From an uncultured Alphaproteobacteria bacterium (GTDB taxonomy: Bacteria; Pseudomonadota; Alphaproteobacteria; RF32; CAG-239): a DNA stretch of 64,000 nucleotides. The notes beneath the pieces were generated by a model. It did no database searches, had not been told where the DNA came from, and was given only the letters and a program-made list of their open reading frames with translations. The stretch is from NCBI GenBank assembly GCA_944392295.1, contig CALXWE010000001.1:67239-131238 (forward strand). The letters run 5' to 3'. Every line of letters begins with the position of its first letter. The stretch's first letter is position 1. Positions 2,260-24,720 of the stretch are shown one piece after another. The position numbers were made by a program, and so were the translations under genes.

Positions 2260-2371
2260 ATCGAACACGAAAACTCTTATAATGTATATTTTTTTAAATG
2301 TCCAGTATATTTTTTATTTTTTTGCATATTTTTTTATTATATCCCCAAAATCCTTGCTTTCTGCGGGTTTG

Positions 2372-2701
2372 TTATTTAGAAAAGGAGCTTTTATTATCTT
2401 TTTCAAGCTCTATAATATCTTTATTATTAAGTGTACGGCATTCTTTGGCAAACCAGCAACCGTTTTGCTTAGCAACGGAGTTTAACAAAATTTGTTTATC
2501 GGCAGAGCATTCGGTAAAATCTATATTTTCGGGGCTCTGCTTGCCGCATAAAACATCTCTTTCGCGTTCAAGCGCATCCAAGCGCAATAAATGGCGGTGG
2601 TACAGGGGCGAGCTGTAATAGCTATCGTTGCCGTTTTCTTGGCAAAAGATTAGTTCTTTTATAAATTTTATTTCGTTGTTTATTTCATCTAAAGTTTTCA
2701 T
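2372..2701 (-). CDS. hypothetical small Cys-containing protein
   Basis: Strong RBS (taaggagacagccATG); 20-bp perfect palindrome atatatcaatattgatatat upstream at ~2741-2760. Confidence 0.45.
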   Translation of the reverse strand: MKTLDEINNEIKFIKELIFCQENGNDSYYSSPLYHRHLLRLDALERERDVLCGKQSPENIDFTECSADKQILLNSVAKQNGCWFAKECRTLNNKDIIELEKDNKSSFSK

Positions 2702-2857
2702 GGCTGTCTCCTTATATTAAAATTAATATAATTATAAAAATATATCAATATTGATATATCGGCTTGTGCAAAACTTTTAGCCATCACTTTTTATAAGTAC
2801 GTCATTAAAAAATCCACCGAAGCAAAATCGGCGGATTTTTTACTCGAAATCTTATTT

Positions 2858-3559
2858 TTATACGTGCATCAGTACGCCGATAACCTTTCCTAAAACCTTT
2901 AATTGACCGGCATCTTGCGTGCGATATGCTTTATATTGCTGGTTATCACAGCTTATTTCCGTAGAACCATCCAAAGGTGAGGTTTGTAAACGCTTAATAT
3001 TAACCTCTCGTCCGCTGGCCAATAAATACAACCCGTCGGTCTCCGGCCTTTGGTAAGAAATATCAACCCAAACATAATCCCCCGGATTAATCGACGGTTT
3101 CATGGTATCGCTTACTATTTTAACAATTTTAATGTCTTGCGGATGCGAATAGGTAAAGTCAGCCAAAATGTTCTTGCTTATGTATTGCCTGCCGATAATG
3201 TTGTGCGCAAAATCGGTGCCGTCGATTTGCGGTTTTAATATGTCAATTACTGCCATTTCGCTATCTTCCGATGACGCGGTTTTTACAATTTCGGATATCA
3301 GATTTATATTTTTATCTGTTGAACTTGTTGCTTTTGAGGCAATAATTTCATCATCCATAAGCTCAATGTCGTCAATGCCCAGTAACTGAGCTAAGCGTGC
3401 GCGGTCGATTTCTTTTAAGCGGCGAGGGTAGCCGTATTTTACATATTGCTGCAAATAAGAATCTTTGCGCCCGATTTTGAGCGATAGCTCACGGTAATTA
3501 AAGCCTTTTTGTGCAATTAATTGGTCAATTTTTTTTCTTATATCTTCAATATCTGCCAT
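2858..3559 (-). CDS. phage CI/LexA-like repressor (XRE HTH + S24 peptidase domain)
   Basis: N-terminal HTH region (NYRELSLKIGRKDSYLQQYV), C-terminal S24-like segment with SDTMKP...NIKRL (Ser/Lys dyad). Confidence 0.8.
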   Translation of the reverse strand: MADIEDIRKKIDQLIAQKGFNYRELSLKIGRKDSYLQQYVKYGYPRRLKEIDRARLAQLLGIDDIELMDDEIIASKATSSTDKNINLISEIVKTASSEDSEMAVIDILKPQIDGTDFAHNIIGRQYISKNILADFTYSHPQDIKIVKIVSDTMKPSINPGDYVWVDISYQRPETDGLYLLASGREVNIKRLQTSPLDGSTEISCDNQQYKAYRTQDAGQLKVLGKVIGVLMHV

Positions 3560-3684
3560 TTATGCCTCCTTTAATTTTCATACACTATATATTAAAAATA
3601 ATATTTGTGCAAATATTATTTTTCATATTGACTTTTGAGCATGTGTCTTTTTATATTAATATTAATATAGCAAGGAGGTCGTAT
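3560..3684. promoter_or_regulatory. divergent promoter/operator region between repressor and rightward phage genes
   Basis: TTGACT at ~3628-3633 with AT-rich -10 candidates; RBS aaggagg before 3685. Confidence 0.4.
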
Positions 3685-4080
3685 ATGCAAGAAGTAAGCT
3701 CAATTGAAGATGTCGAATATGAAATTAAAAAAGCCATAAAAGTTTTGCGGGCTTTGCCTAAAGACGGACCATATAAGGCAAAATCGTCATGGCCCAAGTT
3801 TTTGCCGGAAAAACAAGATGAAGAATACCAAAAAATTTGCGTAAACTTTACACCGCTTCCTTCCGAAATTGACGATATGGATATGGTGTTTGAACAATGG
3901 TTTAAAGTCTTGGACAGGCAAGACCGCTTGCTGGTATTTTATAAAAATTTCGGGTATCGCGATAAAGTGTTAATGCGTATTTTTAATAAAGCCCGCAGTT
4001 CGCTGTTTGTACAATATAAAAAAGCTCTGCAGTCTATTCTAGATTACGTACTCGAACAACAAGTCAAACATTGCGCCTAA
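3685..4080 (+). CDS. hypothetical phage protein, candidate small terminase subunit by position
   Basis: ATG with aaggagg RBS; immediately upstream of large terminase; no motif recognised. Confidence 0.3.
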   Translation: MQEVSSIEDVEYEIKKAIKVLRALPKDGPYKAKSSWPKFLPEKQDEEYQKICVNFTPLPSEIDDMDMVFEQWFKVLDRQDRLLVFYKNFGYRDKVLMRIFNKARSSLFVQYKKALQSILDYVLEQQVKHCA

Positions 4081-4095
4081 CGGAGTACCACAAAT

Positions 4096-5418
4096 ATGCC
4101 CAAACACCCATCTCTTATTTTTTATGAAAAATATTTTCCGCTGCTGGAAATGGATAACGGTAAATACGATACTTTTGTTTTTACCGGCGGTCGCGGCTCA
4201 TTAAAAACCGGGCACGTTTGTCGGGCAGTTTTGGTGGCCATGATGCGCTCTAAAAAACGTGTTGCCGTGTTCAGAGAAACTAAAGTTTCCACCGAAGAAA
4301 GTCTGTATATTGAATTTAAAGAATTAATCAATAGCGAATTTTTTAATCGAGGGTTTGATTATTCTAAAAATAAAATCGTTCATAAATCCACCGGCTCGGA
4401 ATTGTTCTTTATGGGGTTGCAAGATAAAAATCAGAGTGCGCGCGAGAGCCTAAAAGGCTTGGCTCAGGTAGATATTTTATTAATCGACGAAGCCCAAGCC
4501 GTCAGCGCTGCCGTATGGAGCGTACTGTTAAAAACCATACGAAAACAAGGCGTCGTTTTAATTGTTATTTATAACCGTATAGATGACGACTTACCGGTTG
4601 AACAGGCTCTGTTTTTAGATTACGTTTCAATGTCGGCACCCGATAAAACTTATTTTGTAGAGGTAAACTATCCTGAGGTAGAACATTTAGGCGTGTTATC
4701 GGAAAAATTTTTAACCTACGCCGGTTTGATAAAACAAAACAAGCCCGATGAATATGAACGCGATTATCTAAACAAGCCCAAAGGCTCCGATGCCGCCAAA
4801 GTTGTTAAATATTGGTCGCCGGAAAACATTAATCCCGATATTCGCTATTGTGAAGATTTGGATATTTACTGGAGCCTTGATTTTAACGTTAATCCGGCTA
4901 TGTCAACGCTTGCTCATTACGATGGCAAAAAGTTTTTTGTTTTTGATGAATTAGTCTTAAATAATGTTATAACTCAGGACGTCGTCGATGAATTTATGCA
5001 TCGCTATCCGCCGGAAAAGGTTAGGGGAATAATTCAAATTTGCGGTGATGCTTCGGGCAAATATCGCAAGACCCAAAGCCGGTTTTCTGATTATGCCATT
5101 ATTGTTAATACGTTGGCTAAAAACGGGTATCATTATAAACTTAATTTACGTCCATTTAATCCGCCGATTATTGCCAGGGTTAATGCGTTTAACAAACAAG
5201 TTTTAACTGATGACGGTAACAGAAATGTACTGGTTCATCCAAGGTGTAAGTGGCTTATTTATAATATGAAAAATCTGCGTTACAAAGAAGGAACGAATAT
5301 CATCGATGAGGCAACGCCTTCGCAAATTGCTGATGATGACGCCAAACTTTACTTAGGACATATCTTTGATGCCGTAAGCTATATGGTAGAATTTTTTAAA
5401 CCAGTCGTTAAAGAATGA
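4096..5418 (+). CDS. terL: phage terminase large subunit (PBSX/Terminase_3-like)
   Basis: Walker A-like FTGGRGSLKTGH, Walker B VDILLIDEAQ, C-terminal nuclease-like region. Confidence 0.85.
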   Translation: MPKHPSLIFYEKYFPLLEMDNGKYDTFVFTGGRGSLKTGHVCRAVLVAMMRSKKRVAVFRETKVSTEESLYIEFKELINSEFFNRGFDYSKNKIVHKSTGSELFFMGLQDKNQSARESLKGLAQVDILLIDEAQAVSAAVWSVLLKTIRKQGVVLIVIYNRIDDDLPVEQALFLDYVSMSAPDKTYFVEVNYPEVEHLGVLSEKFLTYAGLIKQNKPDEYERDYLNKPKGSDAAKVVKYWSPENINPDIRYCEDLDIYWSLDFNVNPAMSTLAHYDGKKFFVFDELVLNNVITQDVVDEFMHRYPPEKVRGIIQICGDASGKYRKTQSRFSDYAIIVNTLAKNGYHYKLNLRPFNPPIIARVNAFNKQVLTDDGNRNVLVHPRCKWLIYNMKNLRYKEGTNIIDEATPSQIADDDAKLYLGHIFDAVSYMVEFFKPVVKE

Positions 5419-5473
5419 CTATTTTACTAAACTAATAAGAGAGTTACTTAAGCTTGAAAGGGGTGCTCTGTTT

Positions 5474-5660
5474 GATGACAAAACCGAACAAAATCGAACA
5501 TTTTCGAACATTTTTGCGCTGGACATTTTTTGTAAAAAAAGGCTATAAAAAAGCTATAATCGTAAGATCGAGTGCAAGCCATAAACTCTCACGATTATAT
5601 TTAAACTTAAACTGAAATTTTAACAACCAATACCGAAGCTCATAACTTCGGTATTTTTTT
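5474..5660 (+). repeat. cassette element copy A: 3 cgaaca iterons, promoter, stem-loop, intrinsic terminator
   Basis: Shares ...cgaacattttcgaacatttttgcgctggacattttttgtaaaaaaaggctataaaaaagctataatcgtaagatcgagtgcaagccataaactctcacgattat...taccgaagctcataacttcggtattttttt with copies C and D. Confidence 0.8.
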
Positions 5661-5749
5661 ACAAGAAGTAAAGCCCATGTTTTATTATGGGCTTTACAAA
5701 AATAAACAAAAGTTGTACTGTGTGAAAAAATCAACCGAGGAGGCTGTCA

Positions 5750-6658
5750 ATGAAAATAATTAAATATCTGATTGCGGAACTTTTGTTTATTATCTTAATT
5801 ATCAATAATTACGGTATGTTTGTTAATATGGATAAAGCCGATTTGGTTTGCATTAACGAGGGTATCAACAATTATCTGCAATTTGATTGGAATAGTTATT
5901 TTCATTGGTTCCGAGATGATATAAATACCGTTTGTCGTTTTGATACACAAAGCTTATTTATGTATTTTTGGTTTGTTCTTACTTATTATACCTTATTTAA
6001 AATCATTGCTCTCAAAATCTTCCCTGATAGCTTAAAAATAAAATTTTTGATTCCCGAAACTTTGGTTTACATATTGTCTTTCGGCATACGAATTGTTTGG
6101 ACCGATGGTTTTGAAGTAACATCCGGAAGTCTGCAAAACGCCGCTCTCGGTTTGATGTATATGTTCTCACCGTTCATTGTATATGTTATTATTGTATATT
6201 TAGCATACCACATGGCTGAGACCTATGGCAGGAAAATGCCGCAATCCGTTAAAAACTTATTTTTAAGTATTGGCTTGTTTATTTTTTCGGTAGTGGCATT
6301 TCCGCCGATATGGGCAATACTTTACAGCTTGTTGCTGCTGCCTTTTATTTTATGGTTTATTTACCTTTACATACCCCGACTATTCGTAAAATCTGTTGCC
6401 GATAAACAAACAACTCCTGCCTCTTATTTTTGTCTTAGGTTGCCTGCCGGAATCATCTTGTTTTTGGGATGTATCAGTTATGAAATTTTATTTTCAAGAC
6501 AGTATTACCGAGCTCTGTCTATAGAGGAGTTTTTCGCCTATTATATTTTGTGTACAACCTTTATCCGATTGACCTATTATCTGTTAATTGCTTTAATTTG
6601 GAATCCCAAAGCCGTTAAAAATTTTGTAAATAAACTACATTTAACTCAAAATACCTAG
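5750..6658 (+). CDS. integral membrane protein (multi-TM), cargo gene
   Basis: RBS gaggagg; many hydrophobic segments. Confidence 0.5.
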   Translation: MKIIKYLIAELLFIILIINNYGMFVNMDKADLVCINEGINNYLQFDWNSYFHWFRDDINTVCRFDTQSLFMYFWFVLTYYTLFKIIALKIFPDSLKIKFLIPETLVYILSFGIRIVWTDGFEVTSGSLQNAALGLMYMFSPFIVYVIIVYLAYHMAETYGRKMPQSVKNLFLSIGLFIFSVVAFPPIWAILYSLLLLPFILWFIYLYIPRLFVKSVADKQTTPASYFCLRLPAGIILFLGCISYEILFSRQYYRALSIEEFFAYYILCTTFIRLTYYLLIALIWNPKAVKNFVNKLHLTQNT

Positions 6659-6669
6659 AGCTTGAATAT

Positions 6670-7104
6670 TTATTCAAGCTCTACCACAAAGGTTGCAACC
6701 CCCAATCGTTGCCAATTTTCATCATAGGAATATTCTTTTATGTAGCGGGCGGTACATATCCCTTTGGCATCTTTAAGGAAACATTCTTCCGGTACATATC
6801 TGTAAAACTCGTCACTGCCGAAAATTTGACATTTTAAAATTATATAATCATTTTCATTTTCCAACAGCTGACAAGTATTAGTCGTCCAACCGTCCTTATA
6901 ATTATCGCCGTCTTTATGAATAACCGAGTTGGAGTAGCGTAGGGAATTGGGTGTTAAAAATGTTTCACGCGAATTAGACGATAAAGGAGATAATTGTTTA
7001 TAAAACAACGGATTTACAAATTTTTCTTCCTTCTCACTTCCGGCCCGCAATGAACATCCGACAATAAATAACACGCTTAATATTACCCATAAACTTTTTT
7101 TCAT
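6670..7104 (-). CDS. lipoprotein, Cys-containing, cargo gene
   Basis: Signal peptide with lipobox FIVGC. Confidence 0.5.
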   Translation of the reverse strand: MKKSLWVILSVLFIVGCSLRAGSEKEEKFVNPLFYKQLSPLSSNSRETFLTPNSLRYSNSVIHKDGDNYKDGWTTNTCQLLENENDYIILKCQIFGSDEFYRYVPEECFLKDAKGICTARYIKEYSYDENWQRLGVATFVVELE

Positions 7105-7168
7105 AATCTTATTTCCTTATACTTAATTTCCATAAATAATAATTAATCCCGGCTATTCCGTCAAAGAT

Positions 7169-7657
7169 TTACTTGTAATTTTTAAGAAAGCCATAAACGG
7201 CAAGTTCCTGTTTAATTTGCAATAATAGGGTATTAAGGTATTGCAAAACAATTTCTTTGGATTTTGCCATATTTTCCTGTTCGCATACAGTGCCGGCAGG
7301 AGTTGCATATTTATTTAAGCAATAAACAACCCCATAGGCCGATAATGTGGCTTTAACATAGTTGTTATAACTTGCCATATTACGCTCAAGATTATGATTA
7401 TAAAAAGTTTTCATAACCTTATCGGCAAGAGTGTTGGCACAATCAAATTGTCGAGAGCTTTCGGTACATAAAGATAATTCTTTTTGATATTGTGTGATGA
7501 GGGTGTAGTCATCAATTATATCTTTGATTTTTTCTTTACTGCTCCAATCGCTTTTAGCATACACATCATCTATATCAATACCATGGTAAATTTCCGCATT
7601 AACGTTTGTTGCAGATATTAAAAAGCTCAAAAGAGAAATAATGTATATTTTTTTCAT
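7169..7657 (-). CDS. secreted protein with signal peptide, cargo gene
   Basis: AAGGA RBS 8 nt upstream of ATG at 7657; N-terminal signal peptide ...ATNVNA; four Cys. Confidence 0.5.
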   Translation of the reverse strand: MKKIYIISLLSFLISATNVNAEIYHGIDIDDVYAKSDWSSKEKIKDIIDDYTLITQYQKELSLCTESSRQFDCANTLADKVMKTFYNHNLERNMASYNNYVKATLSAYGVVYCLNKYATPAGTVCEQENMAKSKEIVLQYLNTLLLQIKQELAVYGFLKNYK

Positions 7658-7751
7658 AATCAATTATCCTTATGCATAAAACCGATGAAACAAGTTTAGA
7701 TTTAATCCATAATATAAGCAACAACTTTTATAGTTAAAGCACAAGAAAATA

Positions 7752-7840
7752 ATATTTTAACTTAAACTAAAATTTTAACAACCAATACCGAAGCTCTTTG
7801 CTTCGGTATTTTTTTTATTTAAAAGAAAGGAAAATAAATC
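7752..7840 (+). repeat. cassette element copy B (3' part only: terminator hairpin + conserved RBS leader)
   Basis: ttaacttaaactaaaattttaacaaccaataccgaagctctttgcttcggtattttttttatttaaaagaaaggaaaataaatcATG. Confidence 0.75.
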
Positions 7841-8428
7841 ATGACAAATAAAAAATATAATCCATTTGCGGATATGTATAACTTTAATGCTAACAGTAAC
7901 AACTGGGTACAAAAGCTAGGATATAATGCGGATTTTTATAATAATCCGCTGGGCTATAACAGCTCACCCATCCCCAGACCTTATGATAACACAACAAAAT
8001 TAAATAATAATGTTCCTAAATATTGGGACAGTGCAAATGAGGGTAGAAAAGTTCTTGACTATGTAATACAAAAAGAAGGGAATATTACTCCTGAATCACA
8101 AGATTTTTTTGCATATGGAAAATCTGGTCTGACTGGAGGATTAAACACGATACAGAATTATATGTCTTTAAGAGATAAAAGATATACAGATAAGTACAAG
8201 CACGCACTTATAAATTGTAAGGCAGCTCAATCCGGAAAAGGAGGATACGATATTGTAAAATTTATTTCTGATTTAAAAGAAAAGAGTGATGTTAAAAATG
8301 GTCGCAATACTATTGACAGTAGTTTAAGTGATAACTATGCTAACGAAATAGGACGGCTGTTAGGAACAAAATATCGCAAAGGAGATTGTGATGCTCTCAT
8401 CCAACAATACATTAACAAAAATTGGTAA
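7841..8428 (+). CDS. MTNK-family protein with shared N-terminal module and unique C-terminal domain (candidate toxin/effector)
   Basis: First ~52 aa near-identical to 11801-13084 protein (MTNKKYNPFADMYNFNANSNNWVQKLGYNADFYNNPLGYNSSP.PRPYDNTT). Confidence 0.6.
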   Translation: MTNKKYNPFADMYNFNANSNNWVQKLGYNADFYNNPLGYNSSPIPRPYDNTTKLNNNVPKYWDSANEGRKVLDYVIQKEGNITPESQDFFAYGKSGLTGGLNTIQNYMSLRDKRYTDKYKHALINCKAAQSGKGGYDIVKFISDLKEKSDVKNGRNTIDSSLSDNYANEIGRLLGTKYRKGDCDALIQQYINKNW

Positions 8429-8557
8429 GTGGCTTATTATATCTTTTGTTTTCGTTGCGGGGCTTGTGCTTACTGCCCTTATTAGTTTGAGCTGTGTCTA
8501 CATCTTCAGCTTGTAACAGGTCTATAAAATTGTTTGAGTAAAACAAGGAGATTGCTG

Positions 8558-9349
8558 ATGAAAAAGGCTCTGTACATTCTTTTAGAGGTCTTGTTTATAT
8601 TTTTGATTGTAAATCATCGGGAATATTGGCTTGTTGCCAACCAAGCAGTCCGGGTAAACGGAGTTTATGTATGGCTTATCTTAACGGCTTATTCAGTCCT
8701 TAAAACATACGGAGCCTTTAATTGGAAACTTACCATAAAGCCTGTTTTTGTAATATGTGAACTATTGTTGTTTATATTATCAGGTTGCGTTTTGGGATTA
8801 TACACCCAAAGTTTGCCAGTAACCGCACAAATATACACTGTATTTTTACCCTTAATTTTTTATGTTTTGGTATTGGGGATGGGATGGTATATACTGCTTA
8901 AAAACAACCCGACAATAAACGATTTTACCACCCATTGCCAACAGCATTCCAAACGTTATCTTGCTTTGATTTGGTTTTTGGCTGCCTTGTTTATATGTCC
9001 GCCGATTTTAACCGTTGTTTACAGCAAGGTATGGTTTGTGCTGATACTGATGGGAATATATGTGTTTTTGCCGTATAAAATAAGTACTTTGTTGCTCAAA
9101 GATTTATCGTTACACAAATTCTTTTCATTAGGAAAAGTAATTCCCGTAATGTTGATAATTTTTGTTCAGATAAATCTGGAAGCGATACTCAGTGGCTTTT
9201 GTTTTTACGGATCTTGGTTGGATGCTTATAGGGTGGTAAAATACATAATAATTGTTGCCGTTTTGCGATTTATTATTTGCGGCTTAATATTATGCGTATT
9301 AGATTACAAACAAATTAAAGGATTATTTATAACAGCCAAAACAAAATAA
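8558..9349 (+). CDS. integral membrane protein (candidate immunity protein)
   Basis: ATG with AAGGAG RBS; multiple TM helices. Confidence 0.5.
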   Translation: MKKALYILLEVLFIFLIVNHREYWLVANQAVRVNGVYVWLILTAYSVLKTYGAFNWKLTIKPVFVICELLLFILSGCVLGLYTQSLPVTAQIYTVFLPLIFYVLVLGMGWYILLKNNPTINDFTTHCQQHSKRYLALIWFLAALFICPPILTVVYSKVWFVLILMGIYVFLPYKISTLLLKDLSLHKFFSLGKVIPVMLIIFVQINLEAILSGFCFYGSWLDAYRVVKYIIIVAVLRFIICGLILCVLDYKQIKGLFITAKTK

Positions 9350-9377
9350 ATAAGGTTAATCATATAAGAGGTGATTT

Positions 9378-9914
9378 ATGGAAGAAGGAACACAAAAGCC
9401 AGAAGAAGATGACGCATTGTTCAAAGAGGATGCCAAGACCATATATTTTTCATTTGAAGGGGTATTCGGTCGCATACAATTTTTTATAGTAGCGGTTACC
9501 CTCGGTGGTTTTATGGATTTAATGAGTACGGGAAATAATATAGTACTCGTGGTCATAGGCACAGCCATAGTATTTTATGCGATGCTGGCAGCGATTCAAA
9601 AACGCAGTCGTGATATGAATATTGGCGGTAGTTTGTTTATTTTATTGTATTCTCTGAGTTTTCCGATAAGTCGGATGATGTTATACGGTAGGGATACTGG
9701 AAATCCGATAATTATCCATAACGACATAATTCGGAAAAGTTTTTACGGAGCGTTAATAGGATATTTGATAGTATCATTACTTTTGGTGCTTATGCCCGGA
9801 GCAAAGAAGAAGGATATGAGCAAAAGGAGTCCGTTATTAAAAAATCCTCCGCTGTATTTTTTAATATGCGTAATAATTTATGCCATAGTCGCCTATTTTA
9901 TCAGAGATTTATAG
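9378..9914 (+). CDS. DUF805-like inner membrane protein
   Basis: YFSFEGVFGRIQFF motif resembles DUF805 signature; several TM segments; terminator hairpin ccaaagagggagg...ctccctcttt downstream. Confidence 0.45.
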   Translation: MEEGTQKPEEDDALFKEDAKTIYFSFEGVFGRIQFFIVAVTLGGFMDLMSTGNNIVLVVIGTAIVFYAMLAAIQKRSRDMNIGGSLFILLYSLSFPISRMMLYGRDTGNPIIIHNDIIRKSFYGALIGYLIVSLLLVLMPGAKKKDMSKRSPLLKNPPLYFLICVIIYAIVAYFIRDL

Positions 9915-9984
9915 CTTGTAAGAGATTACCAAAGAGGGAGGATAAAAACTCCCTCTTTAGTATTTTAAAAGCAAATAAGTGAGA

Positions 9985-10531: not shown

Positions 10532-10595
10532 CTTTTTATTAAAACAAAAGTACTCATCAATACGGACAATATGCACTGTGTAACGGGAAGATAAT

Positions 10596-15507: not shown

Positions 15508-15509
15508 AA

Positions 15510-16499: not shown

Positions 16500-16523
16500 T
16501 TTAATTTTTGAAAGGAAAAAACT

Positions 16524-17462: not shown

Positions 17463-17499
17463 TATTAAAATTAATTCATGTAAATCCTTTCGTTATAAA

Positions 17500-17546
17500 A
17501 AAGCAGAGGACGCAATGAAAATTGCGTCCTCTGTGGGTTTAAAGGA
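17500..17546 (+). terminator. intrinsic terminator after capsid gene
   Basis: gcagaggacgcaatgaaaattgcgtcctctg + T-rich. Confidence 0.6.
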
Positions 17547-17570
17547 AAAATGTTTTGAGGAGAAATAAAA

Positions 17571-17801
17571 ATGGCATCGGAAATTGCAGATAAAGTTTTA
17601 GGCAAAAAGACCGATAACTTTACAAAAAACGATAAATATCTGACCGCCGATTGCGTATGGCAGGTTTATAAAACCGGCTGTGGCAAGAGCCGTGTCAACG
17701 GGTTAATGGCAGCCGAAATGCTAAGTCAGGAAGGTAAGAAAAAAGCCAGAAGAGGCATTAAAAAGATTACCGACAAAGACTTTGTTTTTGAGCGGCAATA
17801 A
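17571..17801 (+). CDS. small phage protein
   Basis: RBS gaggag; 76 aa basic. Confidence 0.35.
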   Translation: MASEIADKVLGKKTDNFTKNDKYLTADCVWQVYKTGCGKSRVNGLMAAEMLSQEGKKKARRGIKKITDKDFVFERQ

Positions 17802-17816
17802 TAAAAAGGAGGAAAG

Positions 17817-18482
17817 ATGAAAACCTATTTTGATATTATACGCGATGTATCCAATTTAAGATGGTCGGTAGTTGATACCGATCCTTCATCTTTTGCGGAA
17901 GTTCAAAAAGCCGTAAAGTTAGCCGTACAGCAAGCCAATAGCTATATTTGGGGATTGGATAATTTTCCGTTTAAGGTAAAAAAAGAGGCTTTTAAGATTA
18001 ACAAAGGGCAGTCGGCATTACCGGCACCTAAAGGCAGTATTGTTAATATTTGGCTTGATGGTTCCAATACATATTTGGAAGAAATCAGTCAGGAAAAAGC
18101 CGATTTTCTTTCGGGAGAAGAGAAGGGTAAGCCGGTGTGTTTTTGGATAGAATTCGGAGATGATGGCGCCGAAGTGCATTTTTATCCCAAGGCTTCCGAA
18201 GATTGCACCATGTTAATCCGTTATATAACTAACTGTAAGGCCAAAGCTCAAGACGGCACTTTAAAGGCCAACTTATCGGATATGGACGATGTATTAAACT
18301 TGCCTGACGACAGTGTGATAGAGGACTTGTTTTTGCATTGTTTAAATACCAAGGCAATGGAGTATTTAATTGCCGATACCAATGATGAAAACTATCAGCC
18401 CTACCAAAAAGAATTTGTGGAAGCTTATTCGTCGTTATTATGTTTTAGTGGGGTTAAGCATAATCCTCGTTTAATCGTTTAA
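17817..18482 (+). CDS. phage structural protein (putative adaptor/tail tubular)
   Basis: Position between capsid and large tail protein. Confidence 0.35.
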   Translation: MKTYFDIIRDVSNLRWSVVDTDPSSFAEVQKAVKLAVQQANSYIWGLDNFPFKVKKEAFKINKGQSALPAPKGSIVNIWLDGSNTYLEEISQEKADFLSGEEKGKPVCFWIEFGDDGAEVHFYPKASEDCTMLIRYITNCKAKAQDGTLKANLSDMDDVLNLPDDSVIEDLFLHCLNTKAMEYLIADTNDENYQPYQKEFVEAYSSLLCFSGVKHNPRLIV

Positions 18483-18492
18483 GGAGGAGGCT

Positions 18493-20082
18493 ATGCTAAA
18501 CACACTGTTTATTGATAATTTTCGGGGAATTCGCAAATTTAATCCGGTGGCAGATTTGATATCAAGCGGAGTGGTTTCGGCTGTTAACTGTCAAAATGTG
18601 GAGCTTACCAATACCGAACACAGTAAAAATTTAGCCATTTTTACGACCAAAGGCAACAAAGCGGTTAAAGATATCGGGCAAAAAGTTGTTGGACAGTTTG
18701 AAAGTATTCAAAACGGGACATCTTATTGGTTTATATATGCCACGGACGATACAAGAGGATATCTTTATGCTTTAGGAGCAGATAATGAGCTGACGCTTTT
18801 AGATGTAAGTTTATCGGTAAGTGATGATTGTAACGGTATTACCATTGCCCAAGGTTATAATGACTGGTTTGTGTTTACCAACGGTGTGGATGATTATTTG
18901 GGAGTTTGTATGTCGCAAGCATCCCCCGAAGACCGTATTAAATTTTTGAATGCAACCGATGCCGAAGGGCGTGATATCAGAGGCTTAGGGCTTGAAGTTC
19001 AGGACGGAAGATTGGTAACCTTTTGCCAAAATCGGGTTCATTGGTCGGGACAATCCAACATTTTTGACTGGATATCAAGCGATGAAGAGTTGCTTACGGC
19101 TCCGGCATATCAGGAGTTTGACCGTGATGTAACAGCTATTATTCTTTATAATGATATGTTGATAGCCTTTACCGATGAGTATTCCACTTATTTTAAGGGC
19201 AATCCCGGAGATGCAAGTACCTTCACCCGAGGCGGAGCTTCTGGCGGAGGGTGTCCGTCGTTTCGTTCGGTAATCAAGTTTGATAACAAGCTTTTTTATT
19301 ACGATAACAAAGCCAAAAATGTTTTTGCTTATTACTTAATGGACAGCGGACAAACGCGTCCGAGTGAAGGGCTTGCCAATAATGTCATTTCCTATTTTGA
19401 AGAAATTGATGAAAGTAAATTAAATAAAATAGAAATGGTAAGTTATATCCACGGTAATAAAAGCGAGATATGGCTTAAATTTCCCTCAACAGAGAGGAAT
19501 GTAGTTTTAATTTACGATTATTTGAACGGCGAATGGTGTGAACGTGTTGCTCAAGCCGATATTCACGGATTAAGCCTGATAAAGGGCGGATTATATTCAC
19601 TGTCCGGAACTAAGGTCTTAAAAGAATATATCGGTTCTACATTTGATGGGGAATATATACCTTCGGAATATAAGACCAACATCATCAACTTGCAAAGCGA
19701 CAGTAATATCAAAGTGCCGAAAATGCCTTTGATTTTAACCTTGGATTTTGACTGTGAAAACGACTTTTATATAGAGTTTATCTACGATGATATGCCTAAA
19801 AAAAGCCGCACATTTCATATTGTTAAAATGATGAAAGGTTACTTGATTTGGGCAAACTCGGCAGCAGATGAAAAAGGCGGTCTTTGGAGTTTAGATGCAT
19901 CAGATGAAAACGGCGGCATGTGGGTAAGTTCGGATAAAAACACCGTAATGTTTAACTTGGCGGGAGTTTTACCGTTTAAGCAGTTGCAGATACGAATTTT
20001 TACCAAAGACAGTCCGCAAGAGTTTGCCGTTAAACGGCTGGAGTTCAAACGCGTCGGCTTAAAAACCAAAAGTCTGGGTTAA
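18493..20082 (+). CDS. phage tail protein (large)
   Basis: 529 aa, RBS ggaggagg, position in tail module. Confidence 0.4.
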   Translation: MLNTLFIDNFRGIRKFNPVADLISSGVVSAVNCQNVELTNTEHSKNLAIFTTKGNKAVKDIGQKVVGQFESIQNGTSYWFIYATDDTRGYLYALGADNELTLLDVSLSVSDDCNGITIAQGYNDWFVFTNGVDDYLGVCMSQASPEDRIKFLNATDAEGRDIRGLGLEVQDGRLVTFCQNRVHWSGQSNIFDWISSDEELLTAPAYQEFDRDVTAIILYNDMLIAFTDEYSTYFKGNPGDASTFTRGGASGGGCPSFRSVIKFDNKLFYYDNKAKNVFAYYLMDSGQTRPSEGLANNVISYFEEIDESKLNKIEMVSYIHGNKSEIWLKFPSTERNVVLIYDYLNGEWCERVAQADIHGLSLIKGGLYSLSGTKVLKEYIGSTFDGEYIPSEYKTNIINLQSDSNIKVPKMPLILTLDFDCENDFYIEFIYDDMPKKSRTFHIVKMMKGYLIWANSAADEKGGLWSLDASDENGGMWVSSDKNTVMFNLAGVLPFKQLQIRIFTKDSPQEFAVKRLEFKRVGLKTKSLG

Positions 20083-20105
20083 TTTTAAAAAAGGAGGAGG
20101 CAATA

Positions 20106-20318
20106 ATGAAAAAAAAGGCAACCGGCAAAGTCAGTTATCAGCCTTCGGAAAGTTTTGAGCAGTTAAACAAGCTGCAAGAAATGGCAATTTCGCAAGAAAA
20201 TGTAAGTTTGGCATTAAAAGCGGAAGAGCTCAAAGGCAAGCTTGCCGGATTGTATAGCGATAAAAAAGAGGCGGAAGAAGTTGATACGACGCCTCTTGAG
20301 ATAAAAATCATCAAATAG
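20106..20318 (+). CDS. small phage protein
   Basis: RBS aggaggagg. Confidence 0.35.
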   Translation: MKKKATGKVSYQPSESFEQLNKLQEMAISQENVSLALKAEELKGKLAGLYSDKKEAEEVDTTPLEIKIIK

Positions 20319-20330
20319 GAGGTTGGTAAA

Positions 20331-20741
20331 ATGGTAGTTTTAATAGAAAAAGACAGTCCTTTTTTTGAAAGGCAGAAAGCCAAAGAGCTATTTGAAGCCA
20401 ATCGGGAAAATTTGGATGATGAAAACGGCTTTGAGGGCATATTAGCCAACAGCCGTTTTTTTAATGTCTATCAACACGGTTATATCGGCTCCGGTTTTGT
20501 ATATCAGGGAGCCGAGGATAATCGCAATTATTTGGGAGGATATATGCTGCGAAAACATCATAAAGAAGCGGTGGAGGCTATTAAGCAAATCTGTTCGTTT
20601 TTTGATGAGGTTTACGCTCATACCCGCCATGTAAATGCGGTTATAGCCTTAAAGCGAGCAGGCTTTAAGTGGTATGATCGCAACAAAAAATTGTTAGTTA
20701 AGAAAAACAAAATCAAGAAAGGAGAAAATAATGTCAAGTAA
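20331..20741 (+). CDS. hypothetical phage protein
   Basis: RBS aggaggttgg. Confidence 0.35.
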   Translation: MVVLIEKDSPFFERQKAKELFEANRENLDDENGFEGILANSRFFNVYQHGYIGSGFVYQGAEDNRNYLGGYMLRKHHKEAVEAIKQICSFFDEVYAHTRHVNAVIALKRAGFKWYDRNKKLLVKKNKIKKGENNVK

Positions 20742-21423
20742 TGTAAAAGCCAAACCGCAAACTTTTTCAAGTGGAGGTTTATACGGTACGGCAACCACCA
20801 ATAAAAACGGAACAACTTATAATCCGAGTAATTTTGAAAAACAGCTGGTAGGAATGACTACGCAATATATTCCGCAGTATTTGCAACAGCTGGTAAATCC
20901 GACATATGACAGTGAGGTTTTTAAGGCGCAGACCACGCAAAGGAACAGACTTGCCAATCAAAGCTTTGAAAACAATTTAATAAATCCATTGTCGCAAAGA
21001 GGTCTGACCAGAGGTTCAAGCGTTAATCAAATGAGCAATCAGTTTGCCAACAAATTGGCCGATCTAGAGGTTGATGCGATGGCCAATGAAGATAGTCGCA
21101 ATGCCGGAATATTGAATAATTTATTTAGTTACTATCAGGTTCCGTATGAGATGATGATGGGTATGTCTGATTTCAGTAACAAGCAATATCAAAGTGCCGT
21201 TCAAAATGCCATGATGCAAAATAAAATAAATAACGATGCACTGGGAGGCTGGGCGCAGTCATTAGGAAATATGTCAGTATCTGGAACAGGTAAAAACAAT
21301 AACTCATCCGGCATGGGCTGGGGAGGCTTGGTAGGTACGGGTCTTGGTTATGCGCTGGGAGGTCCGGCAGGAGCATCGGTTGGTTCCGTATTTGGCAATC
21401 AATTGGGCAATTTATGGAAATAA
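20731..21423 (+). CDS. putative internal virion protein, Gly-rich C-terminus
   Basis: Q/N-rich with GxGxG C-terminal tail. Confidence 0.3.
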   Translation: MSSNVKAKPQTFSSGGLYGTATTNKNGTTYNPSNFEKQLVGMTTQYIPQYLQQLVNPTYDSEVFKAQTTQRNRLANQSFENNLINPLSQRGLTRGSSVNQMSNQFANKLADLEVDAMANEDSRNAGILNNLFSYYQVPYEMMMGMSDFSNKQYQSAVQNAMMQNKINNDALGGWAQSLGNMSVSGTGKNNNSSGMGWGGLVGTGLGYALGGPAGASVGSVFGNQLGNLWK

Positions 21424-21489: not shown

Positions 21490-22602
21490 ATGGCAGATAC
21501 TAATTTAGTGTATCCGTACGAGTTTCAAGGAGGAACAAAGGCCGTAGCATCGGAAGTAAATGCCAACTTTGAAGCGGTAAAAAGCTTTGCCGGCGGCATT
21601 AATGCCAGCCTTGACGAATTACGTACGGCAATTGCGGATTTAAAAAATAAACCGACGCGTGAGATGTTTGACATTTATTACAGTTTTTCAAGTAACACTC
21701 CGGCCGGAGCATATCCGTTATGGACTGGGGAGACCATAACTCACTGTAAAAGTTTATATCCGGATTTTTGGAACAAATTAAACAATCTGGTAAGTTTGGG
21801 TAATGTTGTGAGTGTAACTCAAGAAGAATACGAAGAAAAGTTGGAAGAGTACGGTCAATGTGCCGGTTTTTACATTGATAGTTTAAACGGTCATGTCAGA
21901 TTGCCGAAAATCACGCGTTTTATTTCAGGAATTGATGAGTTGAGTCAATTAGCAGCTGAGGAAAACGCAGTAAATACGGCTCATACACATAATTTAAAGG
22001 CCTATACCGGATCTGGTAACCGCAATGCGGCAGAGGAAAGATATTTAGGCTCGGGAACCGATAACTCAAAATCGGATATGTTCTGGAGCGATACGACAGA
22101 TATTGAAAATACGGCAGCAGTGGTAAGCCAAGGTGAAGAAGAGGGGCACCCAAAAAATGTGCGTTTATGCTTGTATATTCAAGTTGCCAATAACTTAGGG
22201 GAGCTATCGGAGCTTGATACAGCTGCTATTGCCAAGGAACTAGAAAGCGGATTGATTGCTTTAGAAAATGCCTACACCACATACAGCACGGAATTAAACA
22301 AACTGTATGCCAAGGTTAAACAGGATATTTTAAGCTCTTCTCCGGTGGTTAAGGATGTGCGTTTGGAAGTAACACCCGAGATGTTTAAGAGCGACGATAC
22401 GTATGAGGAGTATCCGTACAGTGCCGATATTGAGTTTGAAGATGCATCGTCCGAACTTATTCCGACGGTAAATTTCAATTTAGCGGAAAGTCAGAGCGGC
22501 AATTACGCACCTGTGGCGGAAAGTTTGGACGGATATGTCAGGATATACGCTAAGCAAATACCGGAACAAAGCTTTGAGATAGCCTCAATCATACTGCAAT
22601 AG
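21490..22602 (+). CDS. putative tail fibre / receptor-binding protein
   Basis: Last structural gene before lysis cassette; terminator hairpin immediately downstream. Confidence 0.4.
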   Translation: MADTNLVYPYEFQGGTKAVASEVNANFEAVKSFAGGINASLDELRTAIADLKNKPTREMFDIYYSFSSNTPAGAYPLWTGETITHCKSLYPDFWNKLNNLVSLGNVVSVTQEEYEEKLEEYGQCAGFYIDSLNGHVRLPKITRFISGIDELSQLAAEENAVNTAHTHNLKAYTGSGNRNAAEERYLGSGTDNSKSDMFWSDTTDIENTAAVVSQGEEEGHPKNVRLCLYIQVANNLGELSELDTAAIAKELESGLIALENAYTTYSTELNKLYAKVKQDILSSSPVVKDVRLEVTPEMFKSDDTYEEYPYSADIEFEDASSELIPTVNFNLAESQSGNYAPVAESLDGYVRIYAKQIPEQSFEIASIILQ

Positions 22603-22603: not shown

Positions 22604-22640
22604 GATTATGCCGCATTACCTAATGCGGCATAAGTTTTTT
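22604..22640 (+). terminator. intrinsic terminator between tail fibre gene and lysis cassette
   Basis: ttatgccgcattacctaatgcggcataagtttttt. Confidence 0.6.
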
Positions 22641-22655
22641 AAAAAGGAGGTAAAA

Positions 22656-22913
22656 ATGGATTTTTTAAATTTACTGGGAGCGATGTCGGGGTGCGCCTCA
22701 ATAGTGTCGTTTTTAGCGTTGGTAATAAGACTTGGAGAGTGGAAAGCCCGCCATGAGGAACGCTTGGCAAGTCAGGGCAAACGCATTGACGGGATAGAAA
22801 TCAAGCAAGATTCGTTATCGCTATTATTAAACAAAAACAACGAGATACTAGCTGAAATTAAAGTAAAAGTTGATTTGATGCACAAAGAAAAAAATAAAAG
22901 GAGTAAGCAATGA
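22656..22913 (+). CDS. holin-like single-TM protein
   Basis: aggagg RBS; one TM (LGAMSGCASIVSFLALVI) then charged coiled-coil tail; stop overlaps lysozyme ATG. Confidence 0.55.
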   Translation: MDFLNLLGAMSGCASIVSFLALVIRLGEWKARHEERLASQGKRIDGIEIKQDSLSLLLNKNNEILAEIKVKVDLMHKEKNKRSKQ

Positions 22914-23380
22914 TAGATGAAGAAGAAATCATAAGAAGATTGATATTACATGAAGGTATGAGATTAGAACCATATAAATGTTCTAAAGGTTATTTAACCA
23001 TAGGCGTGGGCAGAAATTTAATAACCAATCCTTTGAGTAAAGAGGAAAAAGAATATATCGGTGACTGGAGTAAGGGTATTACCAGAGAGGAGGCATTGTA
23101 CTTATTAAGGCACGATATCAAAAGATTAATCAAAGAGTGTAAAGAAAAAATAAGCTGCTGGCGTTATTTAGATGCGGAAAGAAAATATGCTCTTTTAGAT
23201 ATGGCATTTAATTTAGGAATAAGCGGGGTTTTAAAGTTTAAGAATATGCTGGAGGCGTTATCAATCGGTGATTATCGCGGAGCAGCCAAAGAATGCTTAA
23301 ATTCAAAATATGCTAAAGATGTTGGGATAAGAGCGGTAAGAATAGCTAATATTTTTAAGACTGGGAGGTTTGAAATATGA
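22910..23380 (+). CDS. phage lysozyme (GH24, T4-lysozyme-like endolysin)
   Basis: LHEGMRLEPYKCSKGYLTIGVGRNL matches GH24 catalytic motif. Confidence 0.9.
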   Translation: MIDEEEIIRRLILHEGMRLEPYKCSKGYLTIGVGRNLITNPLSKEEKEYIGDWSKGITREEALYLLRHDIKRLIKECKEKISCWRYLDAERKYALLDMAFNLGISGVLKFKNMLEALSIGDYRGAAKECLNSKYAKDVGIRAVRIANIFKTGRFEI

Positions 23381-23535
23381 TAAAGAAAAAAGAACACAGC
23401 TGTAAATATCAGTTGCGAAGGGAAATAGTTCATAAATTAACTCGAACGCAGTTATTTTGGTTGTGTGTGTTGTTTTTAACGGTGGTAGGTATCATCGGAA
23501 TATGTGCTCCTACGGCTTTAGTTGGTATTTTCTAA
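23377..23535 (+). CDS. small C-terminally anchored membrane protein, translationally coupled to lysozyme (lysis accessory candidate)
   Basis: ATGA overlap with lysozyme stop, GGGAGG RBS, 52 aa with C-terminal TM. Confidence 0.4.
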   Translation: MIKKKEHSCKYQLRREIVHKLTRTQLFWLCVLFLTVVGIIGICAPTALVGIF

Positions 23536-23618
23536 GTAGTAAAATTTAAAAATAAGATTTACAAATCCTAAAATAGATGATTTAATAGGCTCTATATCAG
23601 GAAGGTTCTCAACGGAGA

Positions 23619-24071
23619 TTGATTATGAAAACATTTTTACATCAGGCTTGTGTGCTTGGCGGTTTTTATTTTATAATTTCAAAAATTTTAGGCCGTATAC
23701 CTTGCGTAATAACATCATGGGTCGAGTGGATTATGGTATTTATGCTTATAGTTGCTCTTATGGTGTTGGTATACCAAAAATCATTTCCTGTTATTAAAGG
23801 TTTTGTTCAAAAGTATCCTAAAATAAGCAATTATGTTACAGCACTTGGTGTGGTAGCATATTTTAGCTTTTTCTTTGGATTTATTCCCGGAGCCATAGAT
23901 GGTTATTTTGCCGCCCGCGCCGAAATTAACAAAACTTTATATGTTTCGCAGTTCGTTACTTATCTTCCCATATTTACCACTCTGTATTGGGTAGTCTTTT
24001 GGGCATCAATAATAATGGCAACATATTTAAGTTTTGTTCGTAATTTAATTTATAAATCGGGTAACAAATAA
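23619..24071 (+). CDS. membrane protein, paralog 1
   Basis: Shares KKYPKIS..Y....GVV.YFS..FG.IPGAIDGY with 24125-24658. Confidence 0.45.
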   Translation: MIMKTFLHQACVLGGFYFIISKILGRIPCVITSWVEWIMVFMLIVALMVLVYQKSFPVIKGFVQKYPKISNYVTALGVVAYFSFFFGFIPGAIDGYFAARAEINKTLYVSQFVTYLPIFTTLYWVVFWASIIMATYLSFVRNLIYKSGNK

Positions 24072-24124
24072 TTAAGGATTATGTGTAAGTATCAAAAACA
24101 GCTGTAATCAACTAAGGAGGAAAC

Positions 24125-24658
24125 ATGAAACAGTTTATTAAAGAAGCTCTTTTATTGGGAGGATTTTACTTTTTCCTTTCATATTTTGTATGTTATTTTA
24201 CCGGCAACGATGCCTGGATTTGGGGCTTGGCAATTATTACCATTTTGCTCATTGCCGTTATTGTTTTGGCGTTTAAGAAATCGTTTGCTCCGTTAGCAAA
24301 GTTTTGGAAAAAATATCCTAAAATTTCTACATACCTTGCCGGTTTCGGTGTTGTAAAATATTTCAGTATCATCTTCGGAGGTATTCCGGGAGCCATTGAT
24401 GGTTATTTGATGGTAACGGCAACCGATATAGCTTGGTATCAAGAATATTTTGAAGCATATATGCCTACCTTTATTTTTGTTTATTGGTTGGTATTTTGGT
24501 GCTGCTTGTTCGGAGCTACCTATTTGGCGTTTTTCTCAGATATTAAGTTGGTAAAAATTATTGAAGTTCCGGCTAAAGTAGAGAGCAAAGACGTAGCTCA
24601 AAACAAGGCAAGAGCTCCGCGCAAGAATGCTCGTAAAAAACCAGCCAAAAAGAAATAA
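24125..24658 (+). CDS. membrane protein, paralog 2, basic C-terminal tail
   Basis: Paralog of 23619-24071; bidirectional terminator aaaaaatcccgctcaaatgcgggatttttt downstream. Confidence 0.45.
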   Translation: MKQFIKEALLLGGFYFFLSYFVCYFTGNDAWIWGLAIITILLIAVIVLAFKKSFAPLAKFWKKYPKISTYLAGFGVVKYFSIIFGGIPGAIDGYLMVTATDIAWYQEYFEAYMPTFIFVYWLVFWCCLFGATYLAFFSDIKLVKIIEVPAKVESKDVAQNKARAPRKNARKKPAKKK

Positions 24659-24720
24659 TTATTAGAAGTTAAAAAAAATCCCGCTCAAATGCGGGATTTT
24701 TTGTGCGTGATTAAAATAAA

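Follow-up and report, generated by a model that had tools for sequence, protein, structure and literature searches.

Gene transfer agents (GTAs) are known from few lineages. For RcGTA, the missing N-terminal DNA-binding domain of the small terminase subunit (TerS) is the proposed explanation of random packaging, and the absence of this half of the protein has been proposed as a trait that defines GTA-type TerS (PMC6854486). The Caulobacter GTA uses antitermination by GafZ (PMC11150451), and FpGTA of Faecalibacterium is reported to be the first podovirus-like GTA-type element (PMC12946183). Here we analyze a 64-kb stretch of DNA from an uncultured gut alphaproteobacterium (contig CALXWE010000001.1; hereafter, the window, that is, the whole stretch), in which a phage-like cluster spans 2.3–24.7 kb. 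We lean, with some reservation, toward the view that this cluster descends from a temperate podovirus of the P22/SU10 type of gut Alphaproteobacteria and has become domesticated and fixed in the chromosome, that is, a GTA-like particle-production locus and not a mobile prophage. The GTA-like domestication is supported by the monophyly of the reduced loci, a neighborhood shared across species, apparent purifying selection and the truncation of TerS, and a podovirus-derived, GTA-like particle of this kind may also deliver polymorphic toxins. Our literature searches found no description of a podovirus-derived GTA in Alphaproteobacteria or of any GTA in this uncultured gut group; the combinations of GTA with polymorphic toxin, Tlde1 with capsid, and RF32 with prophage yielded nothing relevant.

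Relatives of the major capsid protein (MCP; 47–100% identity) are encoded in 30 loci of a species-representative genome collection, nearly all labelled as metagenome-assembled genomes (MAGs) of gut Alphaproteobacteria (human, rabbit, mouse and rumen). A megablast search of the whole cluster against GenBank phages matched nothing, and the best tblastn match of the MCP, at 34% identity, is to actinophage capsids, with no close cultured phage. By tblastn synteny, clustering of open reading frames (ORFs) and precomputed Pfam labels, the loci split into a phage type (L035, L037, L038, L040/L049, L042, L048, L050-52 and IMG/VR contigs of up to 35 kb) and a reduced type (the window, L019-L034 and L036). 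The phage-type loci, whose MCPs are 68–78% identical and whose longest contigs reach 33–39 kb, contain early genes (DnaA_C-like, DUF6291, DUF6456, pRha and SocA); a full-length Terminase_2 TerS abuts the large terminase (TerL), TerL abuts the portal, and large proteins of families C22 (~550–620 amino acids, aa) and C23/C37/C40 (~660–890 aa) are encoded between the genes for a 230-aa and a 370-aa protein. In the reduced type, the early region is lost, the repressor, DUF6362 and TerL genes are adjacent, TerL is set apart from the portal gene, the large C22/C23-type proteins are mostly absent, and a lysozyme cassette ends the cluster. In a neighbor-joining tree of portal, MCP and nozzle, the reduced loci form one monophyletic group, which is found in ~17 species-level GTDB genomes (MAGs) of gut Alphaproteobacteria; IMG/VR yielded only phage-type relatives and no member of the reduced clade. 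A second, phylogenetically separate reduced element is present in a mouse-gut MAG (L045, CAJUAK010000001.1, 2193–16707), in the order repressor, DUF6456, an additional gene, TerS remnant and TerL, through to the lysis genes, which include a SleB-like lysin, and then host ROK, porin and GT2 genes; it is flanked by host genes and has an SAA-like effector with a C18 partner after the MCP gene. This family thus shows true phages, a large domesticated clade and a second reduced element together, so that the steps of domestication can be read directly: deletion of early genes, loss of the DNA-binding half of TerS, loss of the large presumed ejection proteins and insertion of a terminator before the portal gene.

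The initial annotation took the gene at 3685–4080 (+) for a terS candidate, but this gene, the first of the rightward operon, encodes a 131-aa DUF6362 protein (PF19889, phrog_6836), and its identification as TerS is ruled out by the prophage L037, which has a DUF6362 gene in the early region plus a separate TerS adjoining TerL. The actual TerS is a truncated and relocated remnant of 70 aa (TerS′; 20106–20318, +), encoded between the nozzle gene and the gene for a 136-aa protein (p136). It aligns with residues 69–150 of a 151-aa Terminase_2 TerS (blastp E 8e-17), and about 33 of its 45 matches among 1.84 billion representative proteins are to the C-terminal part of proteins of 117–189 aa; the reduced clade is represented in that library by only one 70-aa cluster. 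The Pfam Terminase_2 domain (PF03592) spans residues ~2–93 of the full-length relatives and has no match on TerS′, and an N-terminal extension is impossible because just 23 nt separate TerS′ from the preceding stop codon. These alignments show that TerS′ retains the putative C-terminal (oligomerization/TerL-binding) half and lacks the predicted N-terminal DNA-binding part, which is the condition described for GTA-type TerS (PMC6854486). In the loci of the reduced clade, TerS′ occupies a constant place and has a ratio of nonsynonymous to synonymous substitution rates (dN/dS) of 0–0.12. In L045, the TerS remnant is 63 aa long and sits in the original position upstream of TerL, whereas the TerS of its sister L048 is a full 129 aa; because L045 lies on a separate branch and has its own remnant in the original position, the truncation arose twice. 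The truncated TerS is also a simple sequence marker for locating more GTA-like loci.

The locus also shares its chromosomal surroundings across species. Two rabbit-gut genomes (L031 and L036) have the same frame as the window, running from a minus-strand tRNA-Phe gene through genes for a 109-aa protein, the repressor, DUF6362 and TerL to the lysozyme gene and the host genes for UDP-glucose dehydrogenase (Ugd) and an EamA transporter. Against the window, the host Ugd is 68–69% and EamA 49–50% identical, and TerL, MCP and portal are 78%, 77–79% and 67–68% identical, respectively. The left flanks of both consist of host genes (in L036, a GT2 glycosyltransferase and XseA). This neighborhood is common to the window, L019, L031 and L036 and partly to L022-25, which adjoin pilin-like, ArsR/MarR-like and TolB genes that also lie rightward of the window element. 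Some 15 structural ORFs are intact in ~17 species. In a recent pair, synonymous and nonsynonymous changes number 16:3 in the portal gene, 15:1 in the MCP gene and 3:0 in TerS′; where dS is unsaturated, dN/dS of the structural genes is 0.02–0.25 in the recent pair and 0.06–0.42 in deep pairs (at most 0.27 for all except the short p76), and TerL and TerS′ are among the best-conserved genes. Judging from these ratios, every structural gene, TerS′ included, is under purifying selection. Retention in the host lineage under purifying selection, as expected of a GTA, comes with the caveat that the locus is a recombination mosaic. When two haplotype groups are compared (among the window and loci L002, L004-6, L010 and L019), the head module (13516–20741) is ~98% identical, whereas the segment 20731–27848, with the fiber, lysis, Ugd, EamA and sigma-factor segments, is only 73–91% identical, and the breakpoint coincides with the boundary of the 136-aa and 230-aa genes. 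Between these groups, the receptor-binding end co-varies with the adjoining surface-polysaccharide-type genes.

Most of the gene set proposed initially is borne out by Pfam and PHROG matches (repressor, TerL, portal, capsid, tail genes and lysozyme) and, for the holin and the small membrane protein, by a scan for transmembrane (TM) segments; the scaffold is assigned by position and composition only, and the tail fiber by a weak phrog_27381 match. All of the following genes are on the plus strand. TerL (4096–5418; Terminase_3, phrog_3717, phrog_2) is separated from the portal (13516–15294; phrog_332/1216 and a weak PF12236, Head-tail_con, match, with SU10_portal in relatives), which is followed by a 66-aa head-module protein conserved in all relatives (15307–15507), a 329-aa scaffold candidate that is the most divergent head gene (15510–16499), the HK97-fold MCP (16524–17462; phrog_267, PF25209), the 76-aa virion-module protein p76, recognized by its conservation (17571–17801), a head-to-tail adaptor (17817–18482; weak PF24175, SU10_adaptor, match in orthologues) and a 529-aa tail nozzle or hub (18493–20082; the homologue P0209 carries PF11134). 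Downstream of TerS′, two virion proteins of 136 aa and 230 aa (p136 and p230; 20331–21423) are conserved in all relatives; the C-terminus of the latter is glycine-zipper-like, and it may be a small ejection protein. The tail fiber or receptor-binding candidate (21490–22602), among the most divergent structural genes, precedes the lysis cassette (22608–23535), which consists of a holin-like ORF with one TM segment (22608–22913), a phage lysozyme (22910–23380; PF00959, phrog_7) and a 52-aa TM ORF (23377–23535), the first and last recognized by the TM scan. At the variable right end, two paralogues of 150 aa and 177 aa (23619–24658), both with three TM-like segments, are 62% and 88% identical, respectively, to the proteins of the L019 haplotype.

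For the tail, the podovirus-like character noted initially is now supported by structure. The AlphaFold2 (AF2) model of the nozzle has a pLDDT of 86.8, and its 29 best Foldseek matches in the PDB are without exception nozzle or hub proteins of podoviruses (E 3e-19 to 1e-8), among them those of Pa223, Pan3, Pam1, P22 (gp10), Sf6 (gp8), SU10 and T7 (gp12). Sequence searches of the PDB with the portal, adaptor and nozzle matched nothing; only the fold search, made with the nozzle, worked. The element encodes no ORF of tape-measure length, the nozzle being its longest. Together with the SU10_portal and SU10_adaptor matches in orthologues, which complete a P22/SU10-type module of portal, adaptor and nozzle, the modeled fold supports a podovirus-type tail.

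The CI/LexA-type repressor (2858–3559, −; N-terminal helix-turn-helix and Peptidase_S24 domains; phrog_4, phrog_6201, PF00717) is divided from the DUF6362 gene by a divergent control region (3560–3684) that contains a promoter-like site, TTGACT-18-TATATT, found by promoter scan, and a perfect 11-2-11 palindrome, AATAATATTTG-TG-CAAATATTATT (3599–3622), which we infer to act as an operator. Alignment to LexA and lambda CI shows that the prophage L037 (475–1212) has kept the Ser-Lys dyad of the S24 domain intact, whereas the dyad is Thr-Lys in the window, Ser-Arg in L031 (3371–4144) and L036 (3925–4632), and Ala-Lys in L045 (2193–2816). Each domesticated repressor seen, in a comparison of five sequences only, has lost one residue of the dyad, through differing substitutions, which suggests the loss of self-cleavage. 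Further downstream, a strict scan detects an intrinsic terminator that ends 19–84 nt before the portal start codon in 12 of the 15 loci of the reduced clade, with a sequence that varies from species to species; in the remaining three, a short GC stem and a T-run can be made out by eye. The phage-type loci have such a terminator in one case of nine, and that case is weak. Because intrinsic terminators lie upstream of both the cassettes described below and the portal, read-through is required, which implies antitermination. By its position, DUF6362 is a candidate late activator or antiterminator, a role that is a guess: a word-indexed homologue search gave four close matches, a PDB profile search nothing meaningful, and the AF2 model (pLDDT 44) was unusable.

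Between TerL and the portal lies a strain-variable array of ~8 kb (5419–13515, +; GC 0.32–0.35 in 2-kb windows inside) of low-GC ORFs without matches to phage families. The initial annotation recorded "cargo" here; the insert is real, but the label understates what appears to be a hypervariable effector/immunity-like array. Strains with identical MCPs differ in their sets of cassettes (SAA-like, GH108, DUF805-like and others). A junction repeat occurs in five copies, placed before the cassettes and the portal gene, each with a hairpin, ACCGAAGC-N6-GCTTCGGT, a T-run and a ribosome-binding site (RBS), and three with a promoter-like box; in an E-value-based Rfam scan of 1–27 kb, the junction repeats had no match and only the tRNA scored above threshold. 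Copy 1 (5392–5691, +; repeat families D1, D3 and D4), with promoter-like box, leader and terminator hairpin, precedes a 302-aa protein with ~6 TM-like segments by hydropathy and no family match, immunity- or exclusion-like in appearance (5750–6658, +), and two minus-strand genes, one for a 144-aa lipoprotein of the c144m family (6670–7104; lipobox IVGC) and one for a 164-aa secreted, immunity-like protein with a signal-peptide-like N-terminus (7169–7663). Copy 2 (7749–7833, +; family D3) comprises the terminator and RBS part and introduces a 195-aa effector-like protein (7841–8428, +) with an N-terminal module of ~52 aa and an SAA-like C-terminal domain (PF00277, E 2.4e-11), followed by two multi-TM, immunity-like proteins of 271 aa and 178 aa, by hydropathy (8534–9914, +); this trio recurs in other strains. 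Copy 3 (9981–10280, +; promoter-like box, leader and terminator) leads into three small genes (10274–11416, +) for a basic 85-aa protein, an 86-aa protein with three TM-like segments and a secreted 169-aa protein. Copy 4 (11508–11807, +), 97% identical to copy 3, precedes c427 (427 aa; 11801–13084, +), and copy 5 (13430–13514, +) includes the intrinsic terminator that ends 24 nt before the portal ATG. Seven GAACA motifs at a spacing of ~10–11 nt occur at 10035–10099 and again at 11562–11626, with a partial set at ~5470–5520; lying upstream of the promoter-like box, they look like a protein-binding array.

The cassette proteins of a genome share an N-terminal module of ~50–110 aa and differ in their C-terminal domains, which include Tlde1/YkuD, GH108 with a peptidoglycan-binding domain, weak lysozyme-like matches, SAA-like domains and others without a family. 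In the window, the module of the SAA-like effector is shared with c427, which has the module twice, plus a segment homologous to the middle of C23 (tblastn/blastp E down to 7e-20), and is a truncated C23 derivative. In two loci that keep the large proteins (L027 and L032), the cassette module and the N-terminus of the C23/C37 protein encoded in that genome are 83–92% identical. C22 and C23, which have Gly-rich hydrophobic segments, are encoded at the position of the P22 ejection proteins; the three consecutive genes that follow the nozzle gene in the phage relatives (~200–230, 550–620 and 660–890 aa) resemble the P22 gp7-gp20-gp16 arrangement. PHROG scans of C22/C23/C37/C40 returned only families of unknown function, and Pfam scans of the cassette proteins gave no MuF match.

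In other species, cassettes are found after the MCP gene, between the 230-aa and 370-aa genes or after the holin, and the type of effector predicts the family of the downstream gene. A lysozyme-like effector is followed by a c144m-family lipoprotein in four loci (L020, L026, L027 and L041, the last with six copies), Tlde1 by C21 pairs or C48, and SAA-like domains by C18 or two membrane proteins. The window has a c144m lipoprotein but not the matching effector; orphans of this sort also occur in polymorphic toxin loci. The cassettes thus display the architecture of polymorphic toxins and type-specific partner families, and the reading of the array as a set of hypervariable effector/immunity-like genes derived from presumed ejection proteins, that is, the toxin layer of our interpretation, is partly supported.

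Under the scenario of a GTA-like particle, the CI-type repressor would shut the divergent promoter in 3560–3684, and, with the dyad altered, derepression would perhaps no longer proceed by plain SOS autocleavage. Once derepressed, DUF6362 and TerL would be expressed, and the terminators would be read through by antitermination, with DUF6362 as the candidate factor. Portal, scaffold, capsid, adaptor, nozzle and fiber would assemble into a short-tailed particle, TerL with a TerS′ devoid of the DNA-recognition domain would presumably package headfuls of any cellular DNA, and holin and lysozyme would free the particles. Cassette proteins might be loaded into the heads via the N-terminal module and expelled together with DNA into the periplasm of the target, and producers of the matching lipoprotein or membrane partner would be spared. 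In its fullest form, which we entertain only tentatively, this scheme describes a kin-discriminating GTA whose particles carry strain-specific cell-wall toxins on an ejection-protein loading module, bringing DNA to immune kin and damaging or killing non-kin, with the DNA-binding domain of TerS lost convergently in two or more lineages of a single phage family. If true, this would add a new route to those by which polymorphic toxins are delivered. The embedded cassettes suggest a reuse of the loading signals of ejection proteins in the delivery of polymorphic cell-wall toxins, which would tie gene transfer to bacteriocin-like antagonism and to kin recognition among gut microbes.

The same cassettes invite another explanation, unlikely in our view, namely, a capsid-based bacteriocin, in which the selected function is the killing of nonimmune competitors by fusions of ejection proteins and toxins, DNA serves only for head maturation and ejection power, and transfer is incidental. 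The presence, in many species, of polymorphic arrays in several intergenic gaps of the structural module, their variation among strains that share an identical capsid protein, the presumed periplasmic action of the effector domains (Tlde1 is described as a family of type VI secretion system effectors) and the orphan immunity-like gene of the window are all compatible with it. However, the interval from TerL to the portal in L031 and L036 contains no more than one or two small ORFs, among which no effector-family cassette was recognized, and yet their whole structural set is under selection; TerL and TerS′, moreover, rank among the best-conserved genes. Cassettes also occur in phage-type relatives and in the independently reduced L045 and so predate domestication or are independent of it.

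Less probable still is a defective prophage remnant devoid of particle function, kept by chance or for its repressor, lysis or cassette genes. The missing integrase and replication genes, the loss of two large proteins of the phage relatives and the altered repressor dyad would fit such a remnant, as would the locus L033 (JAZKXV010000012.1, 1–20840). There, a portal-to-lysis module sits amid housekeeping genes (PrmC, a sigma-70-family factor, a class II aminoacyl-tRNA synthetase, a HAD hydrolase and a DedA-like gene, with a TPR methyltransferase on the other side), and neither TerL nor a repressor is encoded within 7 kb upstream of it. Either this locus appears to be split or TerL has been lost; the split form, if that is what it is, is incompatible with a prophage. 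Of the three candidates named initially, a defective prophage, a GTA-like locus and a satellite, passive decay is argued against because the clade is conserved, the neighborhood is shared and the structural genes are under purifying selection: structural ORFs remain intact across the ~17 species, dN/dS is well below 1 in recent and deep comparisons, even for the 70-aa TerS′, and the clade is monophyletic with shared derived features. TerS was truncated twice, in different ways, which looks like selection and not decay. The GTA-like candidate is the one that is supported; the satellite is rejected, given the element's own tail and lysis genes and its lack of an integrase and a primase.

The mobility genes reported as unrecognizable at the outset were indeed absent. 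Pfam and PHROG scans of the cluster, its flanks and the rest of the window gave no match to an integrase, an excisionase or a replication gene, no primase was found in the element, and the early genes of the phage relatives had no match in the window; these negatives cover the 64-kb window and the homologous loci. Just outside the cluster, where such genes might have been overlooked, the left flank consists of host genes and the right 40 kb of housekeeping genes. The borders share only chance-level 10-mers and no direct repeat longer than expected by chance, so the element has none of the features of an intact temperate prophage that we looked for, whether an integrase with flanking att repeats, a replication or early module, or a full-length TerS. 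As noted initially, it lies on the 5′, noncanonical side of tRNA-Phe, and the same gene in the same orientation borders the L031 and L036 elements; as an integration site, this tRNA is ruled out, the element being on the wrong side and the repeat being absent. C55 and other flank genes of L036, L031 and L045 were ruled out as integrases by Pfam. No empty site was seen among 12 contigs with an identical PLD-like protein. Within the window and the homologous loci, then, phage-derived particle genes reside on a host chromosome without replication, integration or excision functions, as in a GTA, and, judged by this gene content, the element must be incapable of replicating, excising or integrating and would have to spread through host inheritance and homologous recombination. 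That it is a still-propagating virus or a satellite, with replication and integration provided in trans by the host, a helper phage or another locus, is very improbable: possible helpers exist in the intact phage relatives, whose hosts belong to this same group of bacteria, and the near-identical head module in divergent haplotypes indicates recent horizontal movement of at least that segment, but att repeats were not found at the borders, the neighborhood recurs in distant species, the viral contigs of IMG/VR include no reduced-clade member, TerS′ has no recognition domain, the locus seems to be split in one species (L033), and the element has tail and lysis sets of its own, which satellites lack.

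Several observations weigh against a domesticated, GTA-like locus. Inheritance is not strictly vertical because the head module is ~98% identical between haplotype groups that are only 74–89% identical at the right end and in the flanks. If the capsid is unchanged, a headful (~33–39 kb in the relatives) exceeds the 14–22-kb locus, and the regulator retained is a phage-type repressor, not one of the known host regulators of GTAs. The window element has no full-length C22/C23-type protein, which makes delivery of anything uncertain; the view of C22 and C23 as ejection proteins draws on the placement of the genes and the composition of the proteins and not on homology to characterized ones, and that of the partner genes as immunity genes on co-occurrence and predicted localization only. 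Particles, their DNA content and the delivery of DNA or toxins to recipients are deduced from a locus that we know here from its genes alone. Finally, all the genomes are MAGs or metagenome contigs, so that genes for replication, an integrase or a full-length TerS could lie elsewhere in the genome.

The window has a GC content of ~38% and is 100% identical to two human-associated metagenome scaffolds (L001 and L011); a close relative is the MAG CALXTJ01 ("uncultured Alphaproteobacteria bacterium"). The exact MCP of the window is listed in 91 blocks of the collection, with a constant chromosomal context in all contigs shown. The left landmark is the only tRNA gene, tRNA-Phe(gaa) (2184–2259, −; ARAGORN and Rfam), with its 5′ end toward the cluster; in sister contigs, the left flank reads rplL ... 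accC-accB-PLD-tRNA-Phe. The leftmost conserved gene of the cluster (2372–2701, −) encodes a 109-aa Cys-rich protein without Pfam or PHROG matches, the orthologues of which occupy the same position in L031 and L036 at 48–54% identity. To the right, Ugd (24721–26034, −) is followed by the EamA transporter and, over the remaining 37 kb, by housekeeping genes (an ECF sigma factor, ThrRS, MdoGH, MatE, TolB, RecA, DnaK and Sua5).

Several features of these flanks stand apart from the cluster. On the 3′ side of the tRNA gene, a 66-nt direct repeat (1911–1977 and 2123–2188; 97–100% identical; 211–212 nt from start to start) comprises the final 5 nt of tRNA-Phe and the terminator downstream of it; this repeat, which has no connection with the phage-like cluster, may be the scar of an earlier insertion at the canonical side. 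The gene at 1280–1822 (+), which separates the host acc genes from tRNA-Phe, encodes a PLD-like (PLDc_2) protein that matches phrog_12711 and has an N-terminus resembling that of a lipoprotein (FIAGC). Farther to the right, tandem paralogous type IV pilin-like proteins (32617–33240, −, and 33358–33984, −) have a common N-terminus, GRSMVEMLGVLAIIGVL, and divergent C-terminal halves; they could be a receptor or part of a DNA-uptake pilus, and in L022-25 their homologues directly adjoin the right end of the element. A 1017-aa ORF without a Pfam match on record (39776–42829, +) coincides with the GC maximum of the window (0.44).

Compared with the GTAs of the RcGTA type (Rhodobacter and Caulobacter), the locus is likewise a domesticated cluster of phage structural genes that lacks replication and integration genes and is retained across a host clade under apparent purifying selection. 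It likewise has internal terminators that imply antitermination, as in the Caulobacter GTA (PMC11150451), an endolysin and holin for presumed release, and, as in RcGTA, a TerS without the DNA-binding N-terminus. It differs in its independent origin, with a podovirus nozzle instead of a siphovirus tail, in the CI/S24-type repressor at the locus in place of CtrA/GafA-type control, in the relocation of TerS into the tail module and in the embedded effector/immunity-like cassettes. The siphovirus tail and tape-measure protein of an RcGTA-like element were not found here, as judged without direct sequence comparison to RcGTA proteins. Whereas the heads of classical GTAs are too small for their own cluster, the capsid capacity here may exceed the size of the locus.

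FpGTA also resembles the element in some respects: it is a podovirus-like GTA-type element of a gut bacterium, with structural and lysis operons, no replication genes and a TerS candidate without an obvious DNA-binding domain (PMC12946183). The likeness is one of description, and FpGTA differs in its Firmicutes host and in its support from sequencing of virus-like particles, the element here being inferred from gene content; no toxin cassettes are reported in the extracts of that paper (PMC12946183). Satellites, that is, phage-inducible chromosomal islands (PICI) and their capsid-forming variety (cf-PICI), differ from it, having their own integrase and replication module and using the tail and lysis functions of a helper, whereas this element has its own adaptor, nozzle, fiber and lysis genes. 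With the virion modules of P22, Sf6 and SU10, the element shares the architecture of portal, adaptor, nozzle and fiber; unlike them, it lacks the two large proteins, of which it keeps only a truncated derivative and presumed toxin fusions, as well as early genes, an integrase and a full TerS.

For the cassettes, the nearest published concept is that of the MuF polymorphic toxins of temperate phages, in which a conserved N-terminal, virion-associated module is likewise joined to variable C-terminal toxin domains, and the genes likewise lie in the phage morphogenesis region, with immunity genes after them (PMC5576092). In the locus described here, however, the module is not MuF but corresponds to the N-terminal part of the large proteins, presumably ejected, that these elements themselves encode. 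The domains are predicted to target the cell wall or envelope and not the cytoplasm, and the carrier, which resides in Gram-negative hosts, appears to be nonpropagating.

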